Positions 53,958 through 64,000 of a DNA stretch of 64,000 nt are shown here, one piece after another. The translations under genes and the position numbers were made by a program. The first letter of the stretch is position 1. Each line of letters starts with the position of its first letter. The stretch comes from Myxococcota bacterium (GTDB lineage: Bacteria; Myxococcota_A; UBA9160; UBA6930). The notes beneath the pieces are model-generated. The model was given only the letters and a program-made list of their open reading frames with translations. It was not told the DNA's origin and searched no databases. Location: contig OZ245015.1 of NCBI GenBank assembly GCA_965223705.1, forward strand, positions 288,001-352,000, read 5' to 3'.

Positions 53958-54734
53958 ATGCCCTTACTCGAGGAAACAGAGCCCCGCGCACAGGCGGTCG
54001 TCAACGAGAACGGAACGTCGCCGTTTTTCCTCACGTGCGATCACGCAAGCGCCCGGATCCCCCGATCCCTGGGAGATCTCGGGGTTTCCGCCGAGAACCG
54101 CCAGCGCCACATCGCCTGGGACATCGGTGCCGCCGGCGTGGCACGCGAACTTTCGCGACTTCTCGACGCGACCCTCGTGCTGCAGAACTACTCGCGGCTC
54201 GTGATCGACTGCAATCGACCTTTCGAGAACCCGGCATCGATTCCGATCGAGAGCGAGGGGGTCGAGATTCCGGGCAATCGCGATGTCACCGAAGGCGACC
54301 GCTTCGCTCGGCAGTCGGAGATTTTCGATCCGTACCATCGGGAGATCCGCGAGTGTCTCGACCGGCGAGAGCGGGTTGGGAAGCCGACGACCTTCGTCGC
54401 GATCCACAGCTTTACGCCTGTCTACCACGGCGTCCCCCGGCCGTGGGACGTCAGCGTTTTGTACCACCGGGAGCGGCGCCTCTCTCGCTTCGTTCTGGAC
54501 AAGCTCGGGGCAGATCCCGAGCTCTGCGTCGGCGACAACCAACCCTACCAAGTCACCGATACCAGCGATTTTGGCATTCCCGTCCACGCGGAGAGGCGCG
54601 GCCTCGCCTGCGCGCTGATCGAGTTTCGGCAGGATCTCGTCGAAGCTCCCGACGGACAGCGCGCCTGGGCGCATCGCCTTGCCGCCTGCCTCGGCGCTTC
54701 TCCGGAGTTCGAGTCGCTACCGCCCGCCGGTTAG
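53958..54734 (+). CDS. N-formylglutamate amidohydrolase family
   Basis: CDHAS, HIAWDIGA, SRLVIDCNR, IHSFTP, GDNQPY, IEFRQD. Confidence 0.9.
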   Translation: MPLLEETEPRAQAVVNENGTSPFFLTCDHASARIPRSLGDLGVSAENRQRHIAWDIGAAGVARELSRLLDATLVLQNYSRLVIDCNRPFENPASIPIESEGVEIPGNRDVTEGDRFARQSEIFDPYHREIRECLDRRERVGKPTTFVAIHSFTPVYHGVPRPWDVSVLYHRERRLSRFVLDKLGADPELCVGDNQPYQVTDTSDFGIPVHAERRGLACALIEFRQDLVEAPDGQRAWAHRLAACLGASPEFESLPPAG

Positions 54735-56060
54735 GTTGGACACGCTGAAGAGCCGACGCACCTGCGACGGCTTGACTTTCGGGACCTCGACTTCGTCCGC
54801 CCAAACGAGGCTGCCGTTCTCCTTGGCAAGGTTGATCGCGACGCCGCTCTGCCAGTGGGCGACGGTCTGCGCCGGCGACGGTTCGCTGTCGACATCGTCG
54901 CCCGGCCAGCGATAGGTCGAGTAGAGGATCTTGAACAGGTTGTCTTCGCGGTCGAAGATGAGCGCCATCGGAATGTTGAAATTCTCGCGGTCGACGAACA
55001 TCAGCTTTCGGCCGTAGGGGTGCTCAGGCAGGGTGGAGCGCTGTTCCACCACATAGCAGTCCCGGAGCTGCCAGCGGTCTTTCGGGATCCAACTTCCCGG
55101 CCCGTAGAACTTCGCGTGCTCGCCCTTTGAATCCGCGACGTGAAGCACGCGTTTGCGCCCGTGATACGACCACTCGTAGTCGAGCACCCGGCCCGAGAAA
55201 CCTTCGAAATCGTCGAGCGTAAACTCTGATCCGACGAAACTGTCCGCCCGTTCTTTCGGCGACAGGCGTCGCACGCGCCGCTCCGTCGGAAGGTACGAGT
55301 TCACCTGATCTTCTTCGAATGCGTCGAGCGGCCGCTCGATGACGAACGTGCTGCCCCGCATCTCAAAAGGATGTGTGAAGGTGATGAGTTCCTTGTAGTG
55401 GAGCGTGTCGGACCCGTCGACGTCGAGAGCAAAATCCTGACCGTCGAGCATCGCGAGTTTGCTCAAATAGACCCGCTGATACCGCTCGATCAGGTGGCGT
55501 TCGACGAGACCGCCGCCGACCAGTGCGCGATCGACGTCCGTGTTTCGCCCCTGGCGTTCTCCGGGCTTCAGATAGACCAAGTGGATCGAGTCCGACGCGT
55601 AGCCGTAGTATTGCCACCGATAGACGCGATTCCACGCCACCATGTACGCCGCGTCTTCGGGAGGCGCCTCGAGAATCCTGTCGTGGGAGAACGGCTGTCC
55701 CGAAACGTAGTGACCGAGGCTTCGGTCCTCGCGGAGCACCGTCTGCTCGCCGTACTGGATGCTGGCATCGCGATACGCCGCGTGTGGGCTGAAGGACTGC
55801 GTTTCCTGAATCTCGGCTTCAAACTCGGGAAATTCGAGTTGAGAAAGGAAGCCCGGGGGCATCCAGGGAGCGAGCCGCTCGAGGTTCGAGCTCGCGACGA
55901 CGGTTCCTTCGGAAAGGTTCACTTCCGCGTTTCGATGCTCATCCAGCCAGGCGAGAATCTCAGACCACGTCGGCGCGGCGTCCGCGCTCGTCGCGAGGGC
56001 CACATAAAAAAGCCCCGCGAGGGGCCACCAGCGTCGACTCAAATGTTCATTCCCCGCCAC
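54717..56060 (-). CDS. DUF1329-family secreted protein (LolA-like C-terminal domain)
   Basis: Signal peptide, GQPF, VAWN, YLPTERRVRR, DDFEGFSG, HPYGRK. Confidence 0.75.
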   Translation of the reverse strand: MAGNEHLSRRWWPLAGLFYVALATSADAAPTWSEILAWLDEHRNAEVNLSEGTVVASSNLERLAPWMPPGFLSQLEFPEFEAEIQETQSFSPHAAYRDASIQYGEQTVLREDRSLGHYVSGQPFSHDRILEAPPEDAAYMVAWNRVYRWQYYGYASDSIHLVYLKPGERQGRNTDVDRALVGGGLVERHLIERYQRVYLSKLAMLDGQDFALDVDGSDTLHYKELITFTHPFEMRGSTFVIERPLDAFEEDQVNSYLPTERRVRRLSPKERADSFVGSEFTLDDFEGFSGRVLDYEWSYHGRKRVLHVADSKGEHAKFYGPGSWIPKDRWQLRDCYVVEQRSTLPEHPYGRKLMFVDRENFNIPMALIFDREDNLFKILYSTYRWPGDDVDSEPSPAQTVAHWQSGVAINLAKENGSLVWADEVEVPKVKPSQVRRLFSVSNLTGGR

Positions 56061-56401
56061 GCGCGTTCGTCAGGCAAAGCTTCGAGCGTCTCCGTCAACT
56101 GATCGATCAAGCCACCGCACACGACTTCGCAGAGCTCGACCACCGTCGCGTCGACTATACGGTAAAAACCGCGGTTGCCCTCGGAGCGACGGGAAACGAT
56201 CCCTTCTCGGCGGAGGATCGCGAGTTGACGCGAAACCGTCGGTTGGTCGAATTCGGCCGCGTCGGCCAGATCGCCGACCGACATCTCTCCGTCCATCAGC
56301 AGATTGAGCAGCTTGAGTCGCGACGGATCGCCCAGACAGCGAAAGCGAGCTGCGACGATCTTCAGCGCTTCCTCGGTCAAACGTTGAGACTTGCGAGCCA
56401 T
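56039..56401 (-). CDS. ArsR/SmtB-family repressor, probable persulfide/redox sensor
   Basis: FRCLGDPSRLKLL, QPTVSRQLAILR, C-terminal LCEVVC. Divergent from sqr. Confidence 0.9.
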   Translation of the reverse strand: MARKSQRLTEEALKIVAARFRCLGDPSRLKLLNLLMDGEMSVGDLADAAEFDQPTVSRQLAILRREGIVSRRSEGNRGFYRIVDATVVELCEVVCGGLIDQLTETLEALPDERAWRGMNI

Positions 56402-56408
56402 CTAGCAT

Positions 56409-56462
56409 ACGTATACTGACAAAAATCATATATAGCAATATGCGAATATATTCATATAATAG
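56409..56462. promoter_or_regulatory. AT-rich divergent promoter/ArsR operator
   Basis: Strikingly AT-rich island, perfect TATAAT at 56455-56460, imperfect palindrome ATATGCGAATATATTCATAT. Confidence 0.7.
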
Positions 56463-56488
56463 GCGCAATCACTTGAGGAGGGTCTCAG

Positions 56489-57679
56489 ATGACGCATCAC
56501 GTCCTGATCGTTGGCGGCGGGAGCGCGGGTATCACCACGGCGGCGCTGCTCCGGAGAAAAGGCATTACCGAAATTTCGGTGCTCGAGCCGTCCAGCTCCC
56601 ATTACTACCAGCCCGCTTGGACCCTTGTTGGAGGTGGAGTGATTGCCCGGGAGAAAACCGTCCGGCCGACGGCCAGCGTCATGCCCTCCGGTGTGCGCTG
56701 GATCCAAGACCGCGCGAAGAGCTTTGATCCTGTCGCGAATCGACTCGACACGGAACACAACGGTTCGTTGACCTACGACTTTCTCGTGGTCGCGCCGGGA
56801 CTGCAGCTCGATTGGGATGCCATACCGGGCCTGCGCGAAGGTCTCGAAACACCGCATGTGTCGAGTATCTACAGCTTCGAGGGTGCGACGAAGACCTGGG
56901 AGATGCTCGAGCGCACCAAGAGCGGGGACGCGGTCTTCACCTGCCCGCCCATGCCGATCAAGTGCGCGGGCGCGCCTCAGAAGATCGCGTATCTCATGGC
57001 GGATCACTTGCGTCGCAAGGGGCTCAAGGGTGGCTGTCGCGTTCGCTATGCGACGGCGTTGCCCGTGATCTTCGGCGTCAAGGAATACGCCGACCTCTTG
57101 ATCGACATCGCCGCGCGCGCGGACGTCGACGTGCTCTATCAGCATCAGCTCAGCGCGATCGATGCGGCGGCACGGGAAGCGAGCTTCACCGTGACGCGCG
57201 GGGAAGAGAAGATCACGGAGCGGCTTCCCTACGCGGCGCTTCACGTCACCCCGCCCCAAAGCGCCCCGGACTTCATCAAGCAGAGCCCCCTCGCAGGAGA
57301 GAGCCCGGCCGGGTGGATGGCCGTCGACAAGCACACGCTGCGGCACGTCCGTTACGAAAACGTCTTCGGGCTCGGCGATGTCACCGACACGCCGAACGCC
57401 AAAACCGGAGCGGCGATCCGGCATCAAGCACCGGTTCTTGTCGACAACTTGTGTGCGCAAATGGAAGGCCGCTCGTTGCCCGCGTCGTACGGCGGCTACG
57501 GGGCCTGTCCCCTCGTTACGGCCTACGGGAAGATGCTCCTCGCCGAGTTTGACTACACCGGCAAGCCGACTCCGACGCTGCCCATCGACACAATGCGCGA
57601 GCGCTATTCGATGTGGCTACTGAAACGCTACGGGCTGCCCTGGTTCTATTGGAACCGCATGCTGCGCGGTCACTGTTAA
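56489..57679 (+). CDS. sqr: Sulfide:quinone oxidoreductase (type II-like)
   Basis: VGGGSAG, HYYQPAWTLVGGG, IKCAGAPQK, HVTPPQ, LGD, KTGAA, YGACPLVT, LAEFDY. Confidence 0.88.
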   Translation: MTHHVLIVGGGSAGITTAALLRRKGITEISVLEPSSSHYYQPAWTLVGGGVIAREKTVRPTASVMPSGVRWIQDRAKSFDPVANRLDTEHNGSLTYDFLVVAPGLQLDWDAIPGLREGLETPHVSSIYSFEGATKTWEMLERTKSGDAVFTCPPMPIKCAGAPQKIAYLMADHLRRKGLKGGCRVRYATALPVIFGVKEYADLLIDIAARADVDVLYQHQLSAIDAAAREASFTVTRGEEKITERLPYAALHVTPPQSAPDFIKQSPLAGESPAGWMAVDKHTLRHVRYENVFGLGDVTDTPNAKTGAAIRHQAPVLVDNLCAQMEGRSLPASYGGYGACPLVTAYGKMLLAEFDYTGKPTPTLPIDTMRERYSMWLLKRYGLPWFYWNRMLRGHC

Positions 57680-57688
57680 GGAGATCCG

Positions 57689-58105
57689 ATGACGAACTTT
57701 ACCCCCGTCTCCGCATTGCTCGGAGGTTTGATGATCGGTGCCGCGGCAGCGGGCCTCTTGATGTTGCACGGGCGCATCGCCGGAATCAGCGGAATTCTGG
57801 GCGGTGCCCTGACTGGGGACGACCGCGGTTTCCGCTGGGCGTTCTTGGTCGGCTTGCCCCTCGGCGCCGTCCTCGTGTCCGCCCTGCAGGGCGGCGTCAC
57901 GGTCCAGGTCGAAGGCTCTACCGCACTTCTCGTTACGGCGGGACTCCTGGTCGGTGTCGGAACCCAACTCGGGAGCGGATGCACCAGCGGCCACGGCGTC
58001 TGTGGTCTGGCGCGGCGTTCGCCCCGATCACTCATCGCGACCGTCACGTTCATGGGGGTCGCGGCCCTCGTCGTCTACCTCATGCATGTCATCGGAGTTC
58101 GCTGA
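57689..58105 (+). CDS. YeeE/YedE family sulfur-compound transporter subunit
   Basis: GRIAGISG, GSGCTSGHGVCG. Confidence 0.9.
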   Translation: MTNFTPVSALLGGLMIGAAAAGLLMLHGRIAGISGILGGALTGDDRGFRWAFLVGLPLGAVLVSALQGGVTVQVEGSTALLVTAGLLVGVGTQLGSGCTSGHGVCGLARRSPRSLIATVTFMGVAALVVYLMHVIGVR

Positions 58106-58548
58106 TGGTTCGTCTTGTTGCGGCCTTGTGCTTGGGAGTTCTGTTTGGTGTCGGCTTGACGGTTTCGCAGATGGTCAATCCGGCGAAGGTGATCGGTTTC
58201 CTCGACGTGACCGGAAACTGGGATCCGAGTCTGGCTTTCGTCATGGGCGGAGCTTTGATGGTGACGATCCCCATGTTCGCTCTGGCAAAAAAGCGAGAGG
58301 GGCCGCTTCTCGCGCAGCGGTTCCAGTGGCCGAGCCGAACCGACATCGACCCCCGCCTGATCGGCGGGGCGGCAGCGTTCGGAATCGGTTGGGGGCTCGC
58401 TGGGTTTTGCCCCGGACCGGCTCTGGCATCGCTCGGTTTAGGTGAGACGGCGGCGTACCCGTTCGTGATCGCGATGCTCGCCGGAACCTGGCTGGCACGT
58501 GCTGCCTTGTCGGGGGGAACGTTCGCGCAACCACAGGAGTCACGATGA
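58105..58548 (+). CDS. YeeE/YedE family subunit 2
   Basis: MVNPAKVIGFLD, WDPSLAFVM, FGIGWGLAGFCPGP. TGATG overlap with upstream gene. Confidence 0.9.
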   Translation: MVRLVAALCLGVLFGVGLTVSQMVNPAKVIGFLDVTGNWDPSLAFVMGGALMVTIPMFALAKKREGPLLAQRFQWPSRTDIDPRLIGGAAAFGIGWGLAGFCPGPALASLGLGETAAYPFVIAMLAGTWLARAALSGGTFAQPQESR

Positions 58549-59333
58549 TCTTTCGGCAGCTGTACGACCCCGAGACGTCGACGTACACGTACTTACTCGC
58601 GGACGAAGCGAGTCGCGAGGCCGTGCTCATCGATACGGTCCGAGAGCAGTTCGATCGCGACACCCGTCTCCTGAAAGAGCTCGACCTCAAACTCACGTAC
58701 ACACTCGAAACCCACGTGCATGCCGACCACGTGACCGCGTCCGGTCGTCTTCGCGAAGCGTTGGGATCGAAAGTGACGGTCTCTGCGCGTTCTCAGGTCG
58801 AGAACGCCGATTTGATGCTCGAAGATGGGACGAGCGTTGGGTTCGGCAGCTACACGCTGACCGCCCGTGCAACACCCGGTCACACCGCGGGATGCATGAC
58901 CTTCGTTTGTCAAGAAGCGGGAATGGCGTTTACCGGCGACGCGCTTCTGATCCGAGGGTGCGGAAGAACCGATTTCCAAGAAGGCGATCCCCGAACACTG
59001 TACCGCTCGGTCCACGACGTCATTTTCTCTCTTCCCGAGGACACGCTTCTCTACCCTGGCCACGACTATCAGGGACGAATGGTTTCGACGGTGCGCGAAG
59101 AGCGGCGTTTCAACGCGCGCCTCGGCTCGGGTAAGAGCGAAGGCGACTTCGTCGAGATCATGAACGGGTTGAATCTCGCCTATCCGAAACGGATCGACGA
59201 AGCGGTTCCGGCCAACCTTGTGTCCGGGCTATTGCCGCCGCGGGAGACGCCGGAAGACACGTCGGTGGCCGGCGTGATGGAGAAACTGGGCCGCCAAGAC
59301 GCCTACGTGTTTTCTCAAGGTGCGGGCATCTAG
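58545..59333 (+). CDS. pdo: Persulfide dioxygenase (ETHE1-like)
   Basis: FRQLYD..TSTYTYLL, ETHVHADHVT, TPGHT, TGDALLIRGCGRTDFQ, YPGHDY, VPAN. Confidence 0.88.
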   Translation: MIFRQLYDPETSTYTYLLADEASREAVLIDTVREQFDRDTRLLKELDLKLTYTLETHVHADHVTASGRLREALGSKVTVSARSQVENADLMLEDGTSVGFGSYTLTARATPGHTAGCMTFVCQEAGMAFTGDALLIRGCGRTDFQEGDPRTLYRSVHDVIFSLPEDTLLYPGHDYQGRMVSTVREERRFNARLGSGKSEGDFVEIMNGLNLAYPKRIDEAVPANLVSGLLPPRETPEDTSVAGVMEKLGRQDAYVFSQGAGI

Positions 59334-60943
59334 TGACCAACTTCGGTTTCGTCATCGACAATCGCTCCTGTATCGGATGCCACGCTTGTTCGACGGCTTG
59401 CAAGAGTGAAAACGAGGTCCCTCTGGGTGTCTATCGCACGTGGGTCAAGTCCACGGAGACGGGCGCGTGGCCGGATACCCAGCGTCATTTCCAGGTCACC
59501 CGCTGCAACCATTGTGCGAATCCGCCGTGTGTGAGGATCTGCCCGACCCAGGCGATGTATCAGCGCGACGATGGCATCGTCGAGTTTGACAATGACATGT
59601 GCATCGGTTGCAAGGCTTGCTTGCAAGCGTGTCCTTACGACGCGATTCACATCGATCCCGAGACGAATACGGCGGCGAAGTGTCACTACTGCTCGCATCG
59701 GACCGACCGCGGTCTCGAGCCGGCGTGCGTCGTGGTCTGTCCGACCCACGCGATCTTGGCAGGCGACATGGACGACCCGGAATCCGAAATCAGTCGCACG
59801 CTCGCCCGCGAGAAAGTGTCCGTGCGCAAGCCCGAACAAGGGACCGCGCCAAAGCTCTTCTACATCGACGGCGCGGCGGTCAATCTCGTACCGACGGCAG
59901 CCGAAACCTCCTCGACCTTCGTTTGGGCCGATGTGACAGAGCCGCGAGGATCGGGAGAGGAGCACGCTTCGCCTTCCGCGCCGCAGCGGAATCGCCGCGG
60001 AAAAGAGCTGCGGGCCCCCGACCCGCAAGGGCTTCCCCGCGGTGGTCCGATTCAGATCGGCGGCGGTCGCATGGCGGACCATATGGTTCAGGTGGGCTAC
60101 AACGCGCAGCACCGCGTGCCGTGGCACTGGCCCGTTCCCGCGTATCTCGTGACGAAGGCGATCGGCGCCGGCGTCTTTGCCGTCGCGGCCGTCCTGTGGC
60201 TCCTGGGCTATCCGGTCAACCCGTCGACGGCACTCGGGGTCTCTGCGGTCTCGGTTCTCGCGCTACTCGCGACCACGGCGCTTCTCGTGTTCGATCTCGA
60301 ACGGCCGGAACGCTTCCTGTTCGTGGTGCTGCGCGGCCAGTACCGCTCGTGGCTCGCGCGCGGGAGTCTCTGCCTCATCGGGTTCTCAACCCTCGCTGGG
60401 CTGTGGTTTCTCGCCGAGCTCGCCGATGTATCGGTCGTCCGGTCCGCACTGTGGATCGCAGGGCTTCCGTTCGCGCTACTGACGGCGGTGTACACCGCGT
60501 TCTTGTTCGGCCAGGCGGAAGGCCGAGATCTATGGCAAAGCCCGTTGCTCCCCTTCCACATGGCGCTCCAGTCGGTCATGGTGGGCGGAGCGACGCTGCT
60601 GCTCGTTGCGACGGCAACCGGCTCGCCGGCGAGTGTTGTCGAGGCGGCGCGAGCCGTTTTCGCGGGCGCACTTCTCGGAAATCTCGCGATCACTCTGTTT
60701 TGCGAGTTCGGCATGTCTCACGCGAGCGAAGTTGCCGCGCGAGCGGCTCACGAGATGTCTCGCGGAGAGTTCTCGCGTTGGTTTTGGCTGGGCGGCGTCG
60801 TCGTCGGTCATGCGGTCCCGCTCTTTCTCCTCGCGTTCAGTTCGAGCGTGAGCGACTTCGGAGCCGGCTTCGCGACGATCGCGGGCCTCTACGCGTACGA
60901 ATACGCCTTGGTCATGGCGCCCCAACACGTTCCGAACTCCTAG
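59333..60943 (+). CDS. Fused 4x[4Fe-4S] NrfC/PsrB-like domain and NrfD/PsrC-like membrane anchor
   Basis: Four Cys clusters (CIGCHACSTAC, CNHCANPPCVRIC, CIGCKACLQAC, KCHYC..ACVVVC), then W..PVPAYL, DLERPERF, SWLARG, YTAFLF and TM helices. Confidence 0.9.
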   Translation: MTNFGFVIDNRSCIGCHACSTACKSENEVPLGVYRTWVKSTETGAWPDTQRHFQVTRCNHCANPPCVRICPTQAMYQRDDGIVEFDNDMCIGCKACLQACPYDAIHIDPETNTAAKCHYCSHRTDRGLEPACVVVCPTHAILAGDMDDPESEISRTLAREKVSVRKPEQGTAPKLFYIDGAAVNLVPTAAETSSTFVWADVTEPRGSGEEHASPSAPQRNRRGKELRAPDPQGLPRGGPIQIGGGRMADHMVQVGYNAQHRVPWHWPVPAYLVTKAIGAGVFAVAAVLWLLGYPVNPSTALGVSAVSVLALLATTALLVFDLERPERFLFVVLRGQYRSWLARGSLCLIGFSTLAGLWFLAELADVSVVRSALWIAGLPFALLTAVYTAFLFGQAEGRDLWQSPLLPFHMALQSVMVGGATLLLVATATGSPASVVEAARAVFAGALLGNLAITLFCEFGMSHASEVAARAAHEMSRGEFSRWFWLGGVVVGHAVPLFLLAFSSSVSDFGAGFATIAGLYAYEYALVMAPQHVPNS

Positions 60944-60949
60944 GAGGGA

Positions 60950-63934
60950 CTGCCCATCTCATCCCATGCCGACACGCGGACCTTTCTGGCCCGACTGAAG
61001 CAACTGGGCTTCCCGGTCGCGAAGCCGACAGCTCGCACCGAGGCCCCCGAGTTTTCAGAAAGCGAAACGGAGCCCCAGGATCTCCTCGAGGTCAAGCACC
61101 CCGATGGGCGGATGAGTCAGTATCCCCCGGCCGACCGATGGGAAGACTGGACGGAGTGGGACGCACGCGCTTGGCCGCGGAAGAAGGCGCGCCGCTACAC
61201 ACTCGTTCCCACGATTTGTTTCAACTGCGAGAGCGCGTGCGGGTTGCTCGCCTACGTCGACCGTGAGACGTTCGAGGTCAAGCGCTTCGAAGGAAACCCA
61301 GCGCACCCGGGGAGCCGCGGTCGCAACTGCGCGAAAGGCCCGGCCACTCACAATCAAATCTACGATCCCGAGCGGATCCTCTACCCGCTGAAGCGCGTCG
61401 GCGCGCGCGGCGAGGGCCGTTGGAAGCGTGTCAGTTGGGGCGAGGTGCTCGACGACCTCTCTGCCCGCATGCGCGCGAGTCGCGAGCGACGGCGCGATGG
61501 CATCGTCTATCACGTGGGTCGCCCGGGCGAGGATCACTACGTCAACCGTGTGATCCAGTCGTGGGGCGTCGACGGTCACAACAGCCACACCAACATCTGC
61601 TCAGCGGGAGCCCGCGCGGGCTACGCGTTTTGGGCTGGTGCGGATCGCCCGAGTCCCGACCACAGTCGCGCCCGAGCCATTCTGCTGATCTCGTCCCACC
61701 TCGAGGCGGGGCACTATTTCAACCCCCACGCGCAGCGGATCATCGAGGGAAAGCACCGCGGTGCGAAGGTCATCACCCTCGACCCGCGTCTGTCGAATAC
61801 CGCGGCGCGCAGCGACGTCTGGTTGCCGACGTGGCCCGGAAGCGAAGTGTCGGTCCTCTTGGCGTTCGCAAACCACCTGATTCAAACCGGGCGCTACGAC
61901 CGCGAGTTCGTTCGGCGATGGGTCAACTGGGAGACGTTTCTCAAAGCGGCTCCGTCCATTCTCCCACCCGGTGAGGCTCGATCGGTCGCAGAAGAAGCGA
62001 ACCGGCGCGAAGAAGGTCTCGAGTTCTCGGACTTCGACCGTCTGCTGAAGTCGCTCTACGGCGAGTTCACCTTCGAACGAGCGGCCCGCGAGGCGGAAGT
62101 CCCGCAGGAACGAATCGAAGAAGCGGCCGAGATCATCGCCAACGCCGGGGACCGATTGGCAGCCCACACCTGGCGCGCCGCCACGATGGGGAACCGCGGG
62201 GGCTGGCAAGTCGCGCGTACGATCTTCTTCTTGAACGTACTGACGGGGTCCGTCGGGACCGAGGGTGGCACGGCGCTCAACAGCTGGAACAAGTTCGTTC
62301 CGAAGGCGCATTCGCAGCCCGATCCGCTGACGTCCTGGAACGAGCTTCACCTTCCCCACGAGTGGCCGCTCGCGATGTACGAGATGTCGTTCCTTCTGCC
62401 GCACTTTCTGGAGGAAGGCCGGGGGGATATCGACGTGTACTTTACGCGCGTCTACAACCCCATGTGGATCAACCCAGACGGTTTTATGTGGCTCGATGCG
62501 CTTCGCGACGAGGAGAAGATCAAGTTCCACGTCGCCCTGACACCGACGTGGAACGAGAGCGCCTGGTTCGCCGACTACGTCCTTCCCATGGGTCATGGCT
62601 CCGAACGTCACGATCTGATGAGTCAGGAAACTCACCAGAGCTCGTGGATCGGCTTCCGCCAACCCGTACGACGCGTCGCCATGGAGCGAATGGGTCGAAC
62701 GGTCGAGCGCACGTACGAAGCCAATCCCGGCGAGGTGTGGGAGGAAGCGGAGTTCTGGATCGATTTGAGTTGGAAGATCGACCCCGACGGTGCCCTCGGA
62801 ATTCGCAAACACTTCGAAAGTCCGAACCGGCCGGGCGAAGCGATCTCAATCGACGAGTACTTCGGCTGGATCTTCGAGAACAGCGTCCCGGGACTTCCCG
62901 AACGCGCGCGCGAAGAAGGGCTCTCGCCGCTTTCGTATATGAAGAAGTACGGCGCTTTCGAAATCTCGCGCGACGAATTCACTCCGTTCGATCGGCGGGT
63001 CGAGCTACCCGCGGGCCATGTCGTGGAATCGGATGGTGTGGTCAAGGACGAGAACGGAGCCACGCTCGGCGTCATGGTGGACGGAACCTGTCGTACGGGT
63101 TTCGCGACGCCGAGCCGGAGGCTCGAGTTCTTCAGTCCGACTCTCGCAGAGTGGGGTTGGAACGAGCGTGACTACGTCATTCCGTGGCCACTCGAGAGTC
63201 ACGTCGGGCCACGGGCGATCGATCGCGCGCGTGGCGAAATGCTCCTCCTGCCGACGTTTCGCTTGCCCACGCTCATTCATACGCGGAGCGCCAACGCGAA
63301 GTGGCTCTACGAGATCAGCCACAAGAACCCGGTTTGGATGCACCCGGACGACGCTGCGCGGGTGGGCGTCGAGACCGGTGACCTCGTGCGCATCGAAACG
63401 GAGATCGGTTGGTTCGTCGATCGCGTGTGGGTGACTCAAGGGATCAAGCCGGGAATCCTCGCGATGAGCCATCACCTCGGCCGTTGGCGTCTCGCCGCGT
63501 CGTCCGGTGTAAGCCAGGGTATGTCGAACCTGGTGACGCTCACCGGGGAAGGGGAGGGCCCGCACGAGCTTCGCGTCGTTCACGGAGCGCGCGCGTTCGA
63601 ATCGACGGATCCCGATACGAGTCGCATTTGGTGGGAAGACGTCGGCGTGCATCAAAACCTCACCCACGCAGTCCACCCCGATCCGATTTCCGGAGCCCAC
63701 TGCTGGCATCAGAAAGTGTTGTCCGTGCGGCGCGCACGAGAAGGCGAACGGCATGGCGATGTCTTCGTCGATACCCGCAAGTCGATGGAGGTCTACCGCG
63801 AGTGGCGCGCACTCTCCCGTTCTGCGGTCGATCACAGTCCCGACGGCACGCGCCGCCCCTACTGGTTGAACCGGCCGCTCAAGCCTACGCGCGAGACGTA
63901 CCGGCTTCCCGAGTTTCCGTGGGGGCGCTCGTGA
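60950..63934 (+). CDS. Mo-bisPGD oxidoreductase catalytic subunit (Psr/Phs/Ttr/Soe-related superfamily)
   Basis: CFNCESACG..NCAKG [4Fe-4S] motif, RILYPLKR, HTNICS (Cys ligand), DPRLS, ADYVLP, HTRS, MHPDDA. Start uncertain: first ATG is 61112, but the frame is open from 60944. Confidence 0.88.
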   Translation: MPISSHADTRTFLARLKQLGFPVAKPTARTEAPEFSESETEPQDLLEVKHPDGRMSQYPPADRWEDWTEWDARAWPRKKARRYTLVPTICFNCESACGLLAYVDRETFEVKRFEGNPAHPGSRGRNCAKGPATHNQIYDPERILYPLKRVGARGEGRWKRVSWGEVLDDLSARMRASRERRRDGIVYHVGRPGEDHYVNRVIQSWGVDGHNSHTNICSAGARAGYAFWAGADRPSPDHSRARAILLISSHLEAGHYFNPHAQRIIEGKHRGAKVITLDPRLSNTAARSDVWLPTWPGSEVSVLLAFANHLIQTGRYDREFVRRWVNWETFLKAAPSILPPGEARSVAEEANRREEGLEFSDFDRLLKSLYGEFTFERAAREAEVPQERIEEAAEIIANAGDRLAAHTWRAATMGNRGGWQVARTIFFLNVLTGSVGTEGGTALNSWNKFVPKAHSQPDPLTSWNELHLPHEWPLAMYEMSFLLPHFLEEGRGDIDVYFTRVYNPMWINPDGFMWLDALRDEEKIKFHVALTPTWNESAWFADYVLPMGHGSERHDLMSQETHQSSWIGFRQPVRRVAMERMGRTVERTYEANPGEVWEEAEFWIDLSWKIDPDGALGIRKHFESPNRPGEAISIDEYFGWIFENSVPGLPERAREEGLSPLSYMKKYGAFEISRDEFTPFDRRVELPAGHVVESDGVVKDENGATLGVMVDGTCRTGFATPSRRLEFFSPTLAEWGWNERDYVIPWPLESHVGPRAIDRARGEMLLLPTFRLPTLIHTRSANAKWLYEISHKNPVWMHPDDAARVGVETGDLVRIETEIGWFVDRVWVTQGIKPGILAMSHHLGRWRLAASSGVSQGMSNLVTLTGEGEGPHELRVVHGARAFESTDPDTSRIWWEDVGVHQNLTHAVHPDPISGAHCWHQKVLSVRRAREGERHGDVFVDTRKSMEVYREWRALSRSAVDHSPDGTRRPYWLNRPLKPTRETYRLPEFPWGRS

Positions 63935-64000
63935 CCTTGCGGGCCGCTTACGGACTGCTGGCCGAGCTACTCGAGTGGGGCCCCGTCCCGCGCCTTCGAC
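63931..64000 (+). CDS. Probable TorD/DmsD-family chaperone (5' fragment)
   Basis: GTGA overlap with the Mo enzyme stop; MTLRAAYGLLAELL resembles TorD-family N-termini. Only 23 codons visible. Confidence 0.45.
   Translation, partial: MTLRAAYGLLAELLEWGPVPRLR

Follow-up and report, generated by a model that had tools for sequence, protein, structure and literature searches.

A Mo complex of the Unk/PSRLC3 type in an sqr-pdo gene row of a Myxococcota bacterium: a predicted cytoplasm-facing sulfite:quinone oxidoreductase

The window analysed here, a stretch of 64,000 nucleotides (G000:C1:288001-352000, G000 being the host genome), carries a real and functionally coherent row of genes in which an arsR-sqr-pdo set is continued by the genes of a Mo enzyme complex. 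The Mo enzyme belongs to the Unk/PSRLC3-type family rather than to SoeABC, and is predicted to work in a SoeABC-like way. In our view the complex is probably, at moderate confidence, a cytoplasm-facing sulfite:quinone oxidoreductase that was added to an arsR-pdo/sqr unit. The features of the row are as follows.

56039-56401, minus strand: arsR, an ArsR/SmtB repressor (PF01022 and NF033788, both above cut-off)
56426-56460, plus strand: AT-rich intergenic stretch (from sequence and repeats)
56489-57679, plus strand: sqr, sulfide:quinone oxidoreductase of 396 aa with Cys159 and Cys340 (PF07992)
57689-58105, plus strand: yeeE-like gene, half-size YeeE/YedE sulfur transporter subunit with GSGCTSGH (PF04143)
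58105-58548, plus strand: DUF6691 YeeE-partner subunit with GFCPGP (PF20398)
58545-59333, plus strand: pdo, persulfide dioxygenase-like MBL-fold protein with HVHADH, GCGRTD and NARL (PF00753)
59333-60943, plus strand: fused B-C subunit, a 4x[4Fe-4S] domain, a linker and an eight-helix NrfD/PsrC anchor (Pfam, four Cys motifs)
60950-63934, plus strand: Mo-bisPGD catalytic subunit with one [4Fe-4S] site, Unk/PSRLC3-type (likely CTG start; first ATG at 61112)
63931-64000, plus strand: start of torD, a TorD-family chaperone gene that runs on to G000:C1:352806 (PF02613)
G000:C1:352731-354728 (L001:10731-12728), past the window end: SulP-STAS-rhodanese gene (PF00916, PF01740, PF00581)

All genes named in the original prediction were found by profile matches at the place it had given them, the gene called a probable torD among them, and the tight packing it had described was confirmed, with gaps of 9, -1, -4, -1, 6 and -4 nt between successive genes of the row. 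The second of its two YeeE/YedE genes has to be renamed, as it encodes the DUF6691 partner subunit. The statement that no rhodanese is visible holds inside the window only; the operon runs on into the SulP-STAS-rhodanese gene, which continues the row past the window, and a rhodanese is therefore part of the row. This 665-aa ORF after torD is the last of the row, and a convergent methyltransferase gene comes next. Individual assignments differed in strength. The top NCBIfam match of sqr was an SQR model with a score under its cut-off (we take the enzyme to be of type II), the yeeE-like gene scored 28.6 bits with PF04143, whose cut-off is 27, and the pdo product, whose three motifs we presume to be those of a persulfide dioxygenase, matched the Blh model in part. 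The sole SQR, close PDO, NrfD, TorD and SulP matches in the host genome were those of this row; a second, distant YeeE pair was located elsewhere. The gene for a DUF1329/LolA-like exported protein (54717-56060, minus strand) overlaps with its start the end of arsR; in those relatives that were examined it was not linked to the module.

Operons for sulfide detoxification that combine sqr, pdo and rhodanese genes include the BigR/Blh, CstR and FisR types. The window row shares with them a repressor, SQR, PDO, rhodanese and small YeeE-type genes, and differs from them in carrying the Mo complex and SulP. The repressor gene is divergent from the row and its product contains Cys22, Cys91 and Cys95, as had been foreseen; it is likely a putative persulfide or sulfide sensor. 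With the BigR model NF040642 it scored 55.9 bits against a cut-off of 155 (BigR and CstR are named as regulators in the accessible part of PMC9774590). For the single promoter that had been proposed, a palindrome, GAATATATTC, at 56444-56453 (repeat search and eye) and a TATAAT at 56455-56460 (by eye) suggest that the AT-rich stretch is likely a putative operator and promoter; the sigma-70 promoter scan returned 0 sites. The terminator scan gave 11 terminator-like sites compared to 9.5 expected.

Gene callers that take the first ATG (61112) as the start of the catalytic subunit lose 54 residues common to relatives (window 60943-61112). Translation probably begins at CTG 60950 behind an AGGAGG; this start is preferred because the closest full-operon relative aligns from residue 3 of the longer form. 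No RR motif was present in either the longer or the shorter form, and a Tat-like motif was seen in none of the 120 top homologs (some database entries may begin at the internal ATG). The enzyme had been described as non-exported, and these results agree with that. Among the B-C ORFs, 1 of 78 matched the Tat-like pattern. Cys163 (in the 940-aa form) aligned to the ligand position of PsrA and FdhA, and the residue behind this predicted Cys ligand (HTNICS in the window) was Ser in 120 of 120 top homologs. TGA codons that suggested selenocysteine variants were flagged in two loci; they fell outside the aligned protein.

The partner subunit is a fusion of 536 aa with four Cys motifs and a PF03916 NrfD domain. 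Its model shows eight membrane helices and gave Foldseek matches to PsrB, PsrC and ActC, the Fe-S part being of low confidence (pLDDT <50). Among 99 loci examined, B and C formed one ORF in all 71 where both domains were seen. Lysine and arginine residues of the anchor loops averaged 11.2 on the N-terminal side compared to 1.4 on the other, and the same bias was observed in 78 of 78 sequences. Conversely, in two PsrC-like controls, for both of which export was assumed, the bias was reversed (7 vs 15 and 2 vs 10); a Sulfurovum anchor control had nine segments. In the accessible part of PMC8076601, PsrC is described as having its N- and C-termini on the outside, and an inverted topology is expected for SoeC. 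Judged from the loop charges, the anchor is predicted to be inverted, N-in and cytoplasm-facing, in 78 of 78 sequences, and from this bias together with the PsrC/SoeC topology the Fe-S domain and the quinone site are predicted to lie on the cytoplasmic side. The cytoplasm-facing placement claimed earlier is thus consistent with both the anchor and the Tat-less catalytic subunit.

A homolog search scored at least 7,999 candidates, all of them homologs, and the 119 matches listed next after the window's own protein were 70-85% identical to it. A quick maximum likelihood tree (LG+G4, SH-aLRT only) was built from 42 of 65 collected rows, the other 23 being redundant or partial. The window protein grouped with homologs from Rhodococcus RHA1, Thermomicrobium, Natrinema and green sulfur bacteria (SH-aLRT 95; 100 with three unlabelled relatives). 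In this tree, made without SreA and with ArrA reference rows that score under their curated cut-off, it stood apart from SoeA, Psr/Phs, Arr/Arx and Ttr, the placement that the suggested phylogeny of the catalytic subunit was meant to settle. Forcing it together with SoeA was rejected (p-AU 0.016), the SoeA rows being metagenomic ones retrieved by a motif and backed by xsc-pta-tauE context and DmsC anchors. Plasmid searches yielded no SoeA references, and two genome samples around G325, apparently of a phylum other than Pseudomonadota, gave only Psr-like and Ttr-like rows. Bacterial SreA groups with SoeA in Wells et al. 2023 (PMC10100899, as far as its accessible part goes). A related Mo operon of the order B-C-A-torD lies on a plasmid of Azoarcus KH32C (L092, 5245-10405); its enzyme is 30% identical to that of the window and belongs to a sister group, and the operon adjoins acr3 and a PhnD-like/sensor/sigma-54 regulator set.

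Duval et al. 2008 (PMC2500031, accessible sections) described an unstudied 'Unk' clade of the DMSO reductase family with a Tat-less subgroup that has B before A and a B subunit of ~60 kDa, and listed RHA1, Chloroflexus, Roseiflexus and five Chlorobi as members of Unk. The window complex has the same order, no separate C gene, a B subunit of that size, a catalytic subunit without a Tat signal and a Cys ligand. The Rhodococcus RHA1 homolog, RHA1_RS43835, belongs to the clade of the window enzyme and shares 56% identity with it across 99% of the length; from organism and architecture we infer it to be Duval's YP_709030.1. The large B was read by Duval as anchorless, whereas here it includes the fused eight-helix NrfD domain, and the accessible sections of that paper make no mention of linkage to sqr or pdo.

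PSRLC3 of green sulfur bacteria consists of two genes (PMC5473276). It counts as an alternative system of sulfite oxidation in PMC6338057 and as a sulfite oxidase by inference in PMC9324843, each according to the accessible part of the paper. Through the name link in citing papers we infer that the window enzyme is of the PSRLC3 type. Both are two-gene complexes of the same clade, and the homologs in genomes positive for dsrA and fmo are ~55% identical to the window enzyme (BLASTP) and often located beside dsr. We presume that PSRLC3 lies near dsr and is an alternative to Apr/Qmo. The window row, from Myxococcota, differs by having SQR, PDO, YeeE, TorD and SulP in place of TauE-DsrE-TusA-Dsr. 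The module can therefore hardly be called new, as had been proposed: the family was described in 2008 (Unk; PSRLC3), sulfite oxidation has been suggested for it already, and the B-C fusion is its normal form. A literature search that spanned few subscription journals found neither an assay of any Unk/PSRLC3-type member nor a description of this operon.

With SoeABC of Allochromatium vinosum and Aquifex aeolicus the window enzyme shares the cytoplasm-facing Mo/FeS/anchor design with an inverted anchor (accessible part of PMC8076601; predicted for the window complex), as well as the reaction that we propose. On the other hand, SoeABC belongs to another clade, has a local identity of 22-30%, and is encoded by three genes in the order A-B-C with a DmsC-family anchor. 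PsrABC/PhsABC, TtrBCA and ArrAB/ArxAB share with the window complex the fold, the Cys ligand and a 4x[4Fe-4S] B subunit (and, in Psr, an NrfD-type anchor), but they are exported, are ~21-30% identical and form separate clades, and the window enzyme scored far under the NCBIfam cut-offs.

The model of the catalytic subunit (pLDDT 93.5) had reductases as its nearest solved folds, ArrA (6cz7, the top Foldseek match) and PsrA (2vpw), which weakens the reading as a sulfite oxidase. A cytoplasmic quinol:thiosulfate or quinol:polysulfide reductase would return sulfide and sulfite to the pathway from sulfur or from thiosulfate, a by-product of SQR and PDO. The best sequence matches, PsrA in the PDB and PhsA in NCBIfam, point that way, both being far below the level of membership; so do a Psr-like operon that likewise sits with yeeE and rhodanese genes and the E. 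coli YeeE, a thiosulfate importer according to the accessible part of PMC9774590. We nevertheless consider such a reductase improbable: the enzyme lies outside the Psr/Phs group, the outward-facing Psr arrangement would not apply to a quinone site predicted on the cytoplasmic side (PMC8076601, accessible part), and the distribution of Apr described below would be left unexplained.

A non-sulfur substrate is still more improbable. Some databases call homologs 'formate dehydrogenase', and the taxa of 'FqoABC', a complex tentatively named by Calisto and Pereira 2021 (FqoC in Actinobacteria, Chlorobi, Chloroflexi and Deltaproteobacteria) overlap the range of the family, so that formate comes to mind, as does an oxyanion such as arsenate, given ArrA as the top fold match. 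Formate dehydrogenases have a His directly behind the Cys or Sec ligand. The alignment with FdhA places the invariant Ser at this position, against formate; the tree places the enzyme outside Arr/Arx, and there were no arsenic genes among the recurring neighbours annotated in 33 representatives, against arsenate. No characterised non-sulfur clade, which the original prediction had named as a refuting outcome, was found to hold the enzyme.

For gene context we took 80 loci of the close subfamily, the best 80 of 442 relatives in a GTDB scan. Their NCBI labels, some of which look wrong, were Myxococcota (22), Chloroflexota (18), Rhodothermota (16), Pseudomonadota (8), Bacteroidota (7) and other or none (9). 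Plasmid records contained homologs at 51-57% in Thermomicrobium, Rhodococcus RHA1 and haloarchaea. SQR was present at 12 of these best 80 loci, PDO of either type at 34, YeeE/DUF6691 at 26, SulP at 36 and TorD at 62, and TauE was absent from all 80, another difference from the BigR/CstR/FisR-type operons. SQR and PDO were both present at 9 of the best 80 loci. Sulfur markers other than SulP occurred at 49 of the best 80 loci and at 31 of the 40 with long flanks. As background, 204 windows of 22 kb from the host genome included 6 with such markers; this control is one genome, part of the queries were taken from the loci themselves, and related loci are not independent. No sulfur marker, SulP included, was found at 24 of the best 80 loci (7 of 40 with long flanks), and none at the Thermomicrobium and Natrinema loci; this weakens the sulfite-oxidase reading. 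Near the Mo complex the window ArsR had no match at any of the best 80 loci of 442, and a sigma-54 Fis-type activator was seen at 15 of them (e.g., L020:4868-5815). A Mrp/NBP35 gene occupied the usual place of torD downstream of the Mo gene in Rhodococcus (L090) and Natrinema (L091).

One related genome, G328, also has the full operon, arsR-sqr-yeeE-DUF6691-pdo-BC-A-torD-sulP-rhodanese, split over two contigs whose junction lies within A. The RpoB of G328 is 79% identical to that of the host, compared to 72% for a same-order genome; therefore, G328 is likely kin in spite of its Spirochaetales label. SulP-STAS and rhodanese are one ORF in the host and two separate genes in G328. A frameshift artefact was rejected as the cause, since a short-read contig showed no indel (the run may be the source sample). 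A purine-rich stretch and an ATG persist ahead of the rhodanese part, which may therefore also be made on its own.

The Mo enzyme was detected in 38 of 301 Myxococcota genomes, the host included, and in 40 of the 251 genomes sampled from the phylum of G324, but in none of the 40 nearest relatives searched, and its distribution is therefore patchy. Among nearer relatives, 10 of 40 had a close PDO and 2 of 40 an SQR without the Mo enzyme. The enzyme is therefore not obligatory for PDO and SQR, which again weakens the sulfite-oxidase reading. In 5 of the 10 pdo loci an ArsR 55-65% identical to that of the window was divergent from pdo; thus the Mo complex seems to have been added to an older arsR-pdo unit.

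In 16 Bacteroidota_A-type regions from the 40 positive genomes of the G324 phylum, we found DsrE in 15, TusA in 13, TauE in 13, DsrAB in 6 and sHdr/LbpA in 2; TorD had no match in any of the 16. The linkage to sulfur genes that had been expected in relatives thus extends across phyla, with partners that vary with lineage: PDO/SQR, DsrE-TusA-TauE-DsrAB or sHdr/LbpA. All three systems, PDO/SQR, DsrE-TusA-Dsr and sHdr/LbpA, give cytoplasmic sulfite. The adjoining TauE, a sulfite exporter, weakens the sulfite-oxidase reading. The same Mo complex lies within sHdr/LbpA/DsrE clusters at L019 (labelled Myxococcales) and at L164 and L179 (phylum of G324).

Sulfur carriers were among the most constant neighbours, with rhodanese domains at 33 of the best 80 loci of 442 (PDO-rhodanese fusions counted), the frequent DsrE and TusA just given, and dsrE-tusA directly upstream of the Mo complex in Rhodococcus RHA1. 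One could thus think of a Mo enzyme that oxidises carrier-bound sulfur (persulfide or S-sulfonate on rhodanese, TusA, DsrE or glutathione) without O2 and so replaces PDO. We regard this as unlikely, if less so than the reductase: PDO is kept beside the Mo enzyme at 34 of the best 80 loci, and the sulfite step is favoured by the near-exclusion between the Mo enzyme and AprA.

This near-exclusion was observed in the 39 dsrA-positive genomes of the G324-phylum sample, all of which had FMO. The Mo enzyme was found in 25 of them, in 24 without AprA; 10 had AprA only, 1 had both and 4 had neither. Fisher's test gave p 1.5e-5, uncorrected for kinship. On the fmo tree there were four Apr-only lineages, and of 6 independent pairs a mean of 3.8 were for the exclusion and 0.6 against (median p 0.375). 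The pattern favours, without proving it, the same job for the Mo enzyme as for APS reductase; after correction for kinship the exclusion is not significant, which weakens the sulfite-oxidase reading. The four genomes with neither enzyme (G417, G537, G557 and G569) may be incomplete assemblies or have a third sulfite route. In the host genome there was no match for SoeA, AprA or SoxB. A SoxC-type sulfite dehydrogenase with a Tat-like N-terminus (G000:C1:3419154-3420428, L392:4155-5426; above the TIGR04555 cut-off) is encoded there, followed by a CxxCH cytochrome c gene. It would be periplasmic and could oxidise sulfite outside the cytoplasm, and its presence counts against the sulfite-oxidase reading.

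Overall, the quinone-linked sulfur role first suggested is supported by the sulfur genes that recur beside the Mo enzyme across phyla and by the near-exclusion with AprA. For the preferred sulfite:quinone oxidoreductase we envisage that SQR would convert sulfide to persulfide and reduce quinone, the rhodanese and the YeeE/DUF6691 pair would move sulfane sulfur, and PDO would form sulfite from persulfide and O2. The catalytic subunit would then oxidise sulfite to sulfate at the Cys-ligated Mo centre. Five [4Fe-4S] clusters would carry the electrons to the quinone site at the cytoplasmic face of the fused NrfD anchor. TorD would serve maturation of the Mo enzyme, and SulP would export sulfate or thiosulfate.

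Both the family and the hypothesis go back to 2008, which limits the value of the locus; it adds context, not proof. Unk/PSRLC3 is the standing candidate for sulfite oxidation in Apr-less green sulfur bacteria and in SQR/PDO heterotrophs, and the compact operon of SQR, PDO, rhodanese and Mo complex yields a clear prediction, with Rhodococcus jostii RHA1, Roseithermus sacchariphilus and Thermomicrobium roseum as cultured carriers of the enzyme. We tentatively suggest, with rather less confidence than for the function of the complex itself, that Unk/PSRLC3 may be a second, independently evolved cytoplasmic sulfite:quinone oxidoreductase. It would be the sulfite sink shared by Myxococcota, Rhodothermota, Chloroflexota, Actinobacteria, haloarchaea and the majority of green sulfur bacteria, and in operons like this one would let heterotrophs without Sox, Dsr or Soe fully oxidise sulfide in one regulated unit. 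If true, the path from sulfide to sulfate would be complete in one row, with electrons reaching the quinone pool at both ends, and these enzymes, which are often automatically named 'formate dehydrogenase', would be overlooked by marker sets built on soeA, aprA or sorA as signs of sulfite oxidation.
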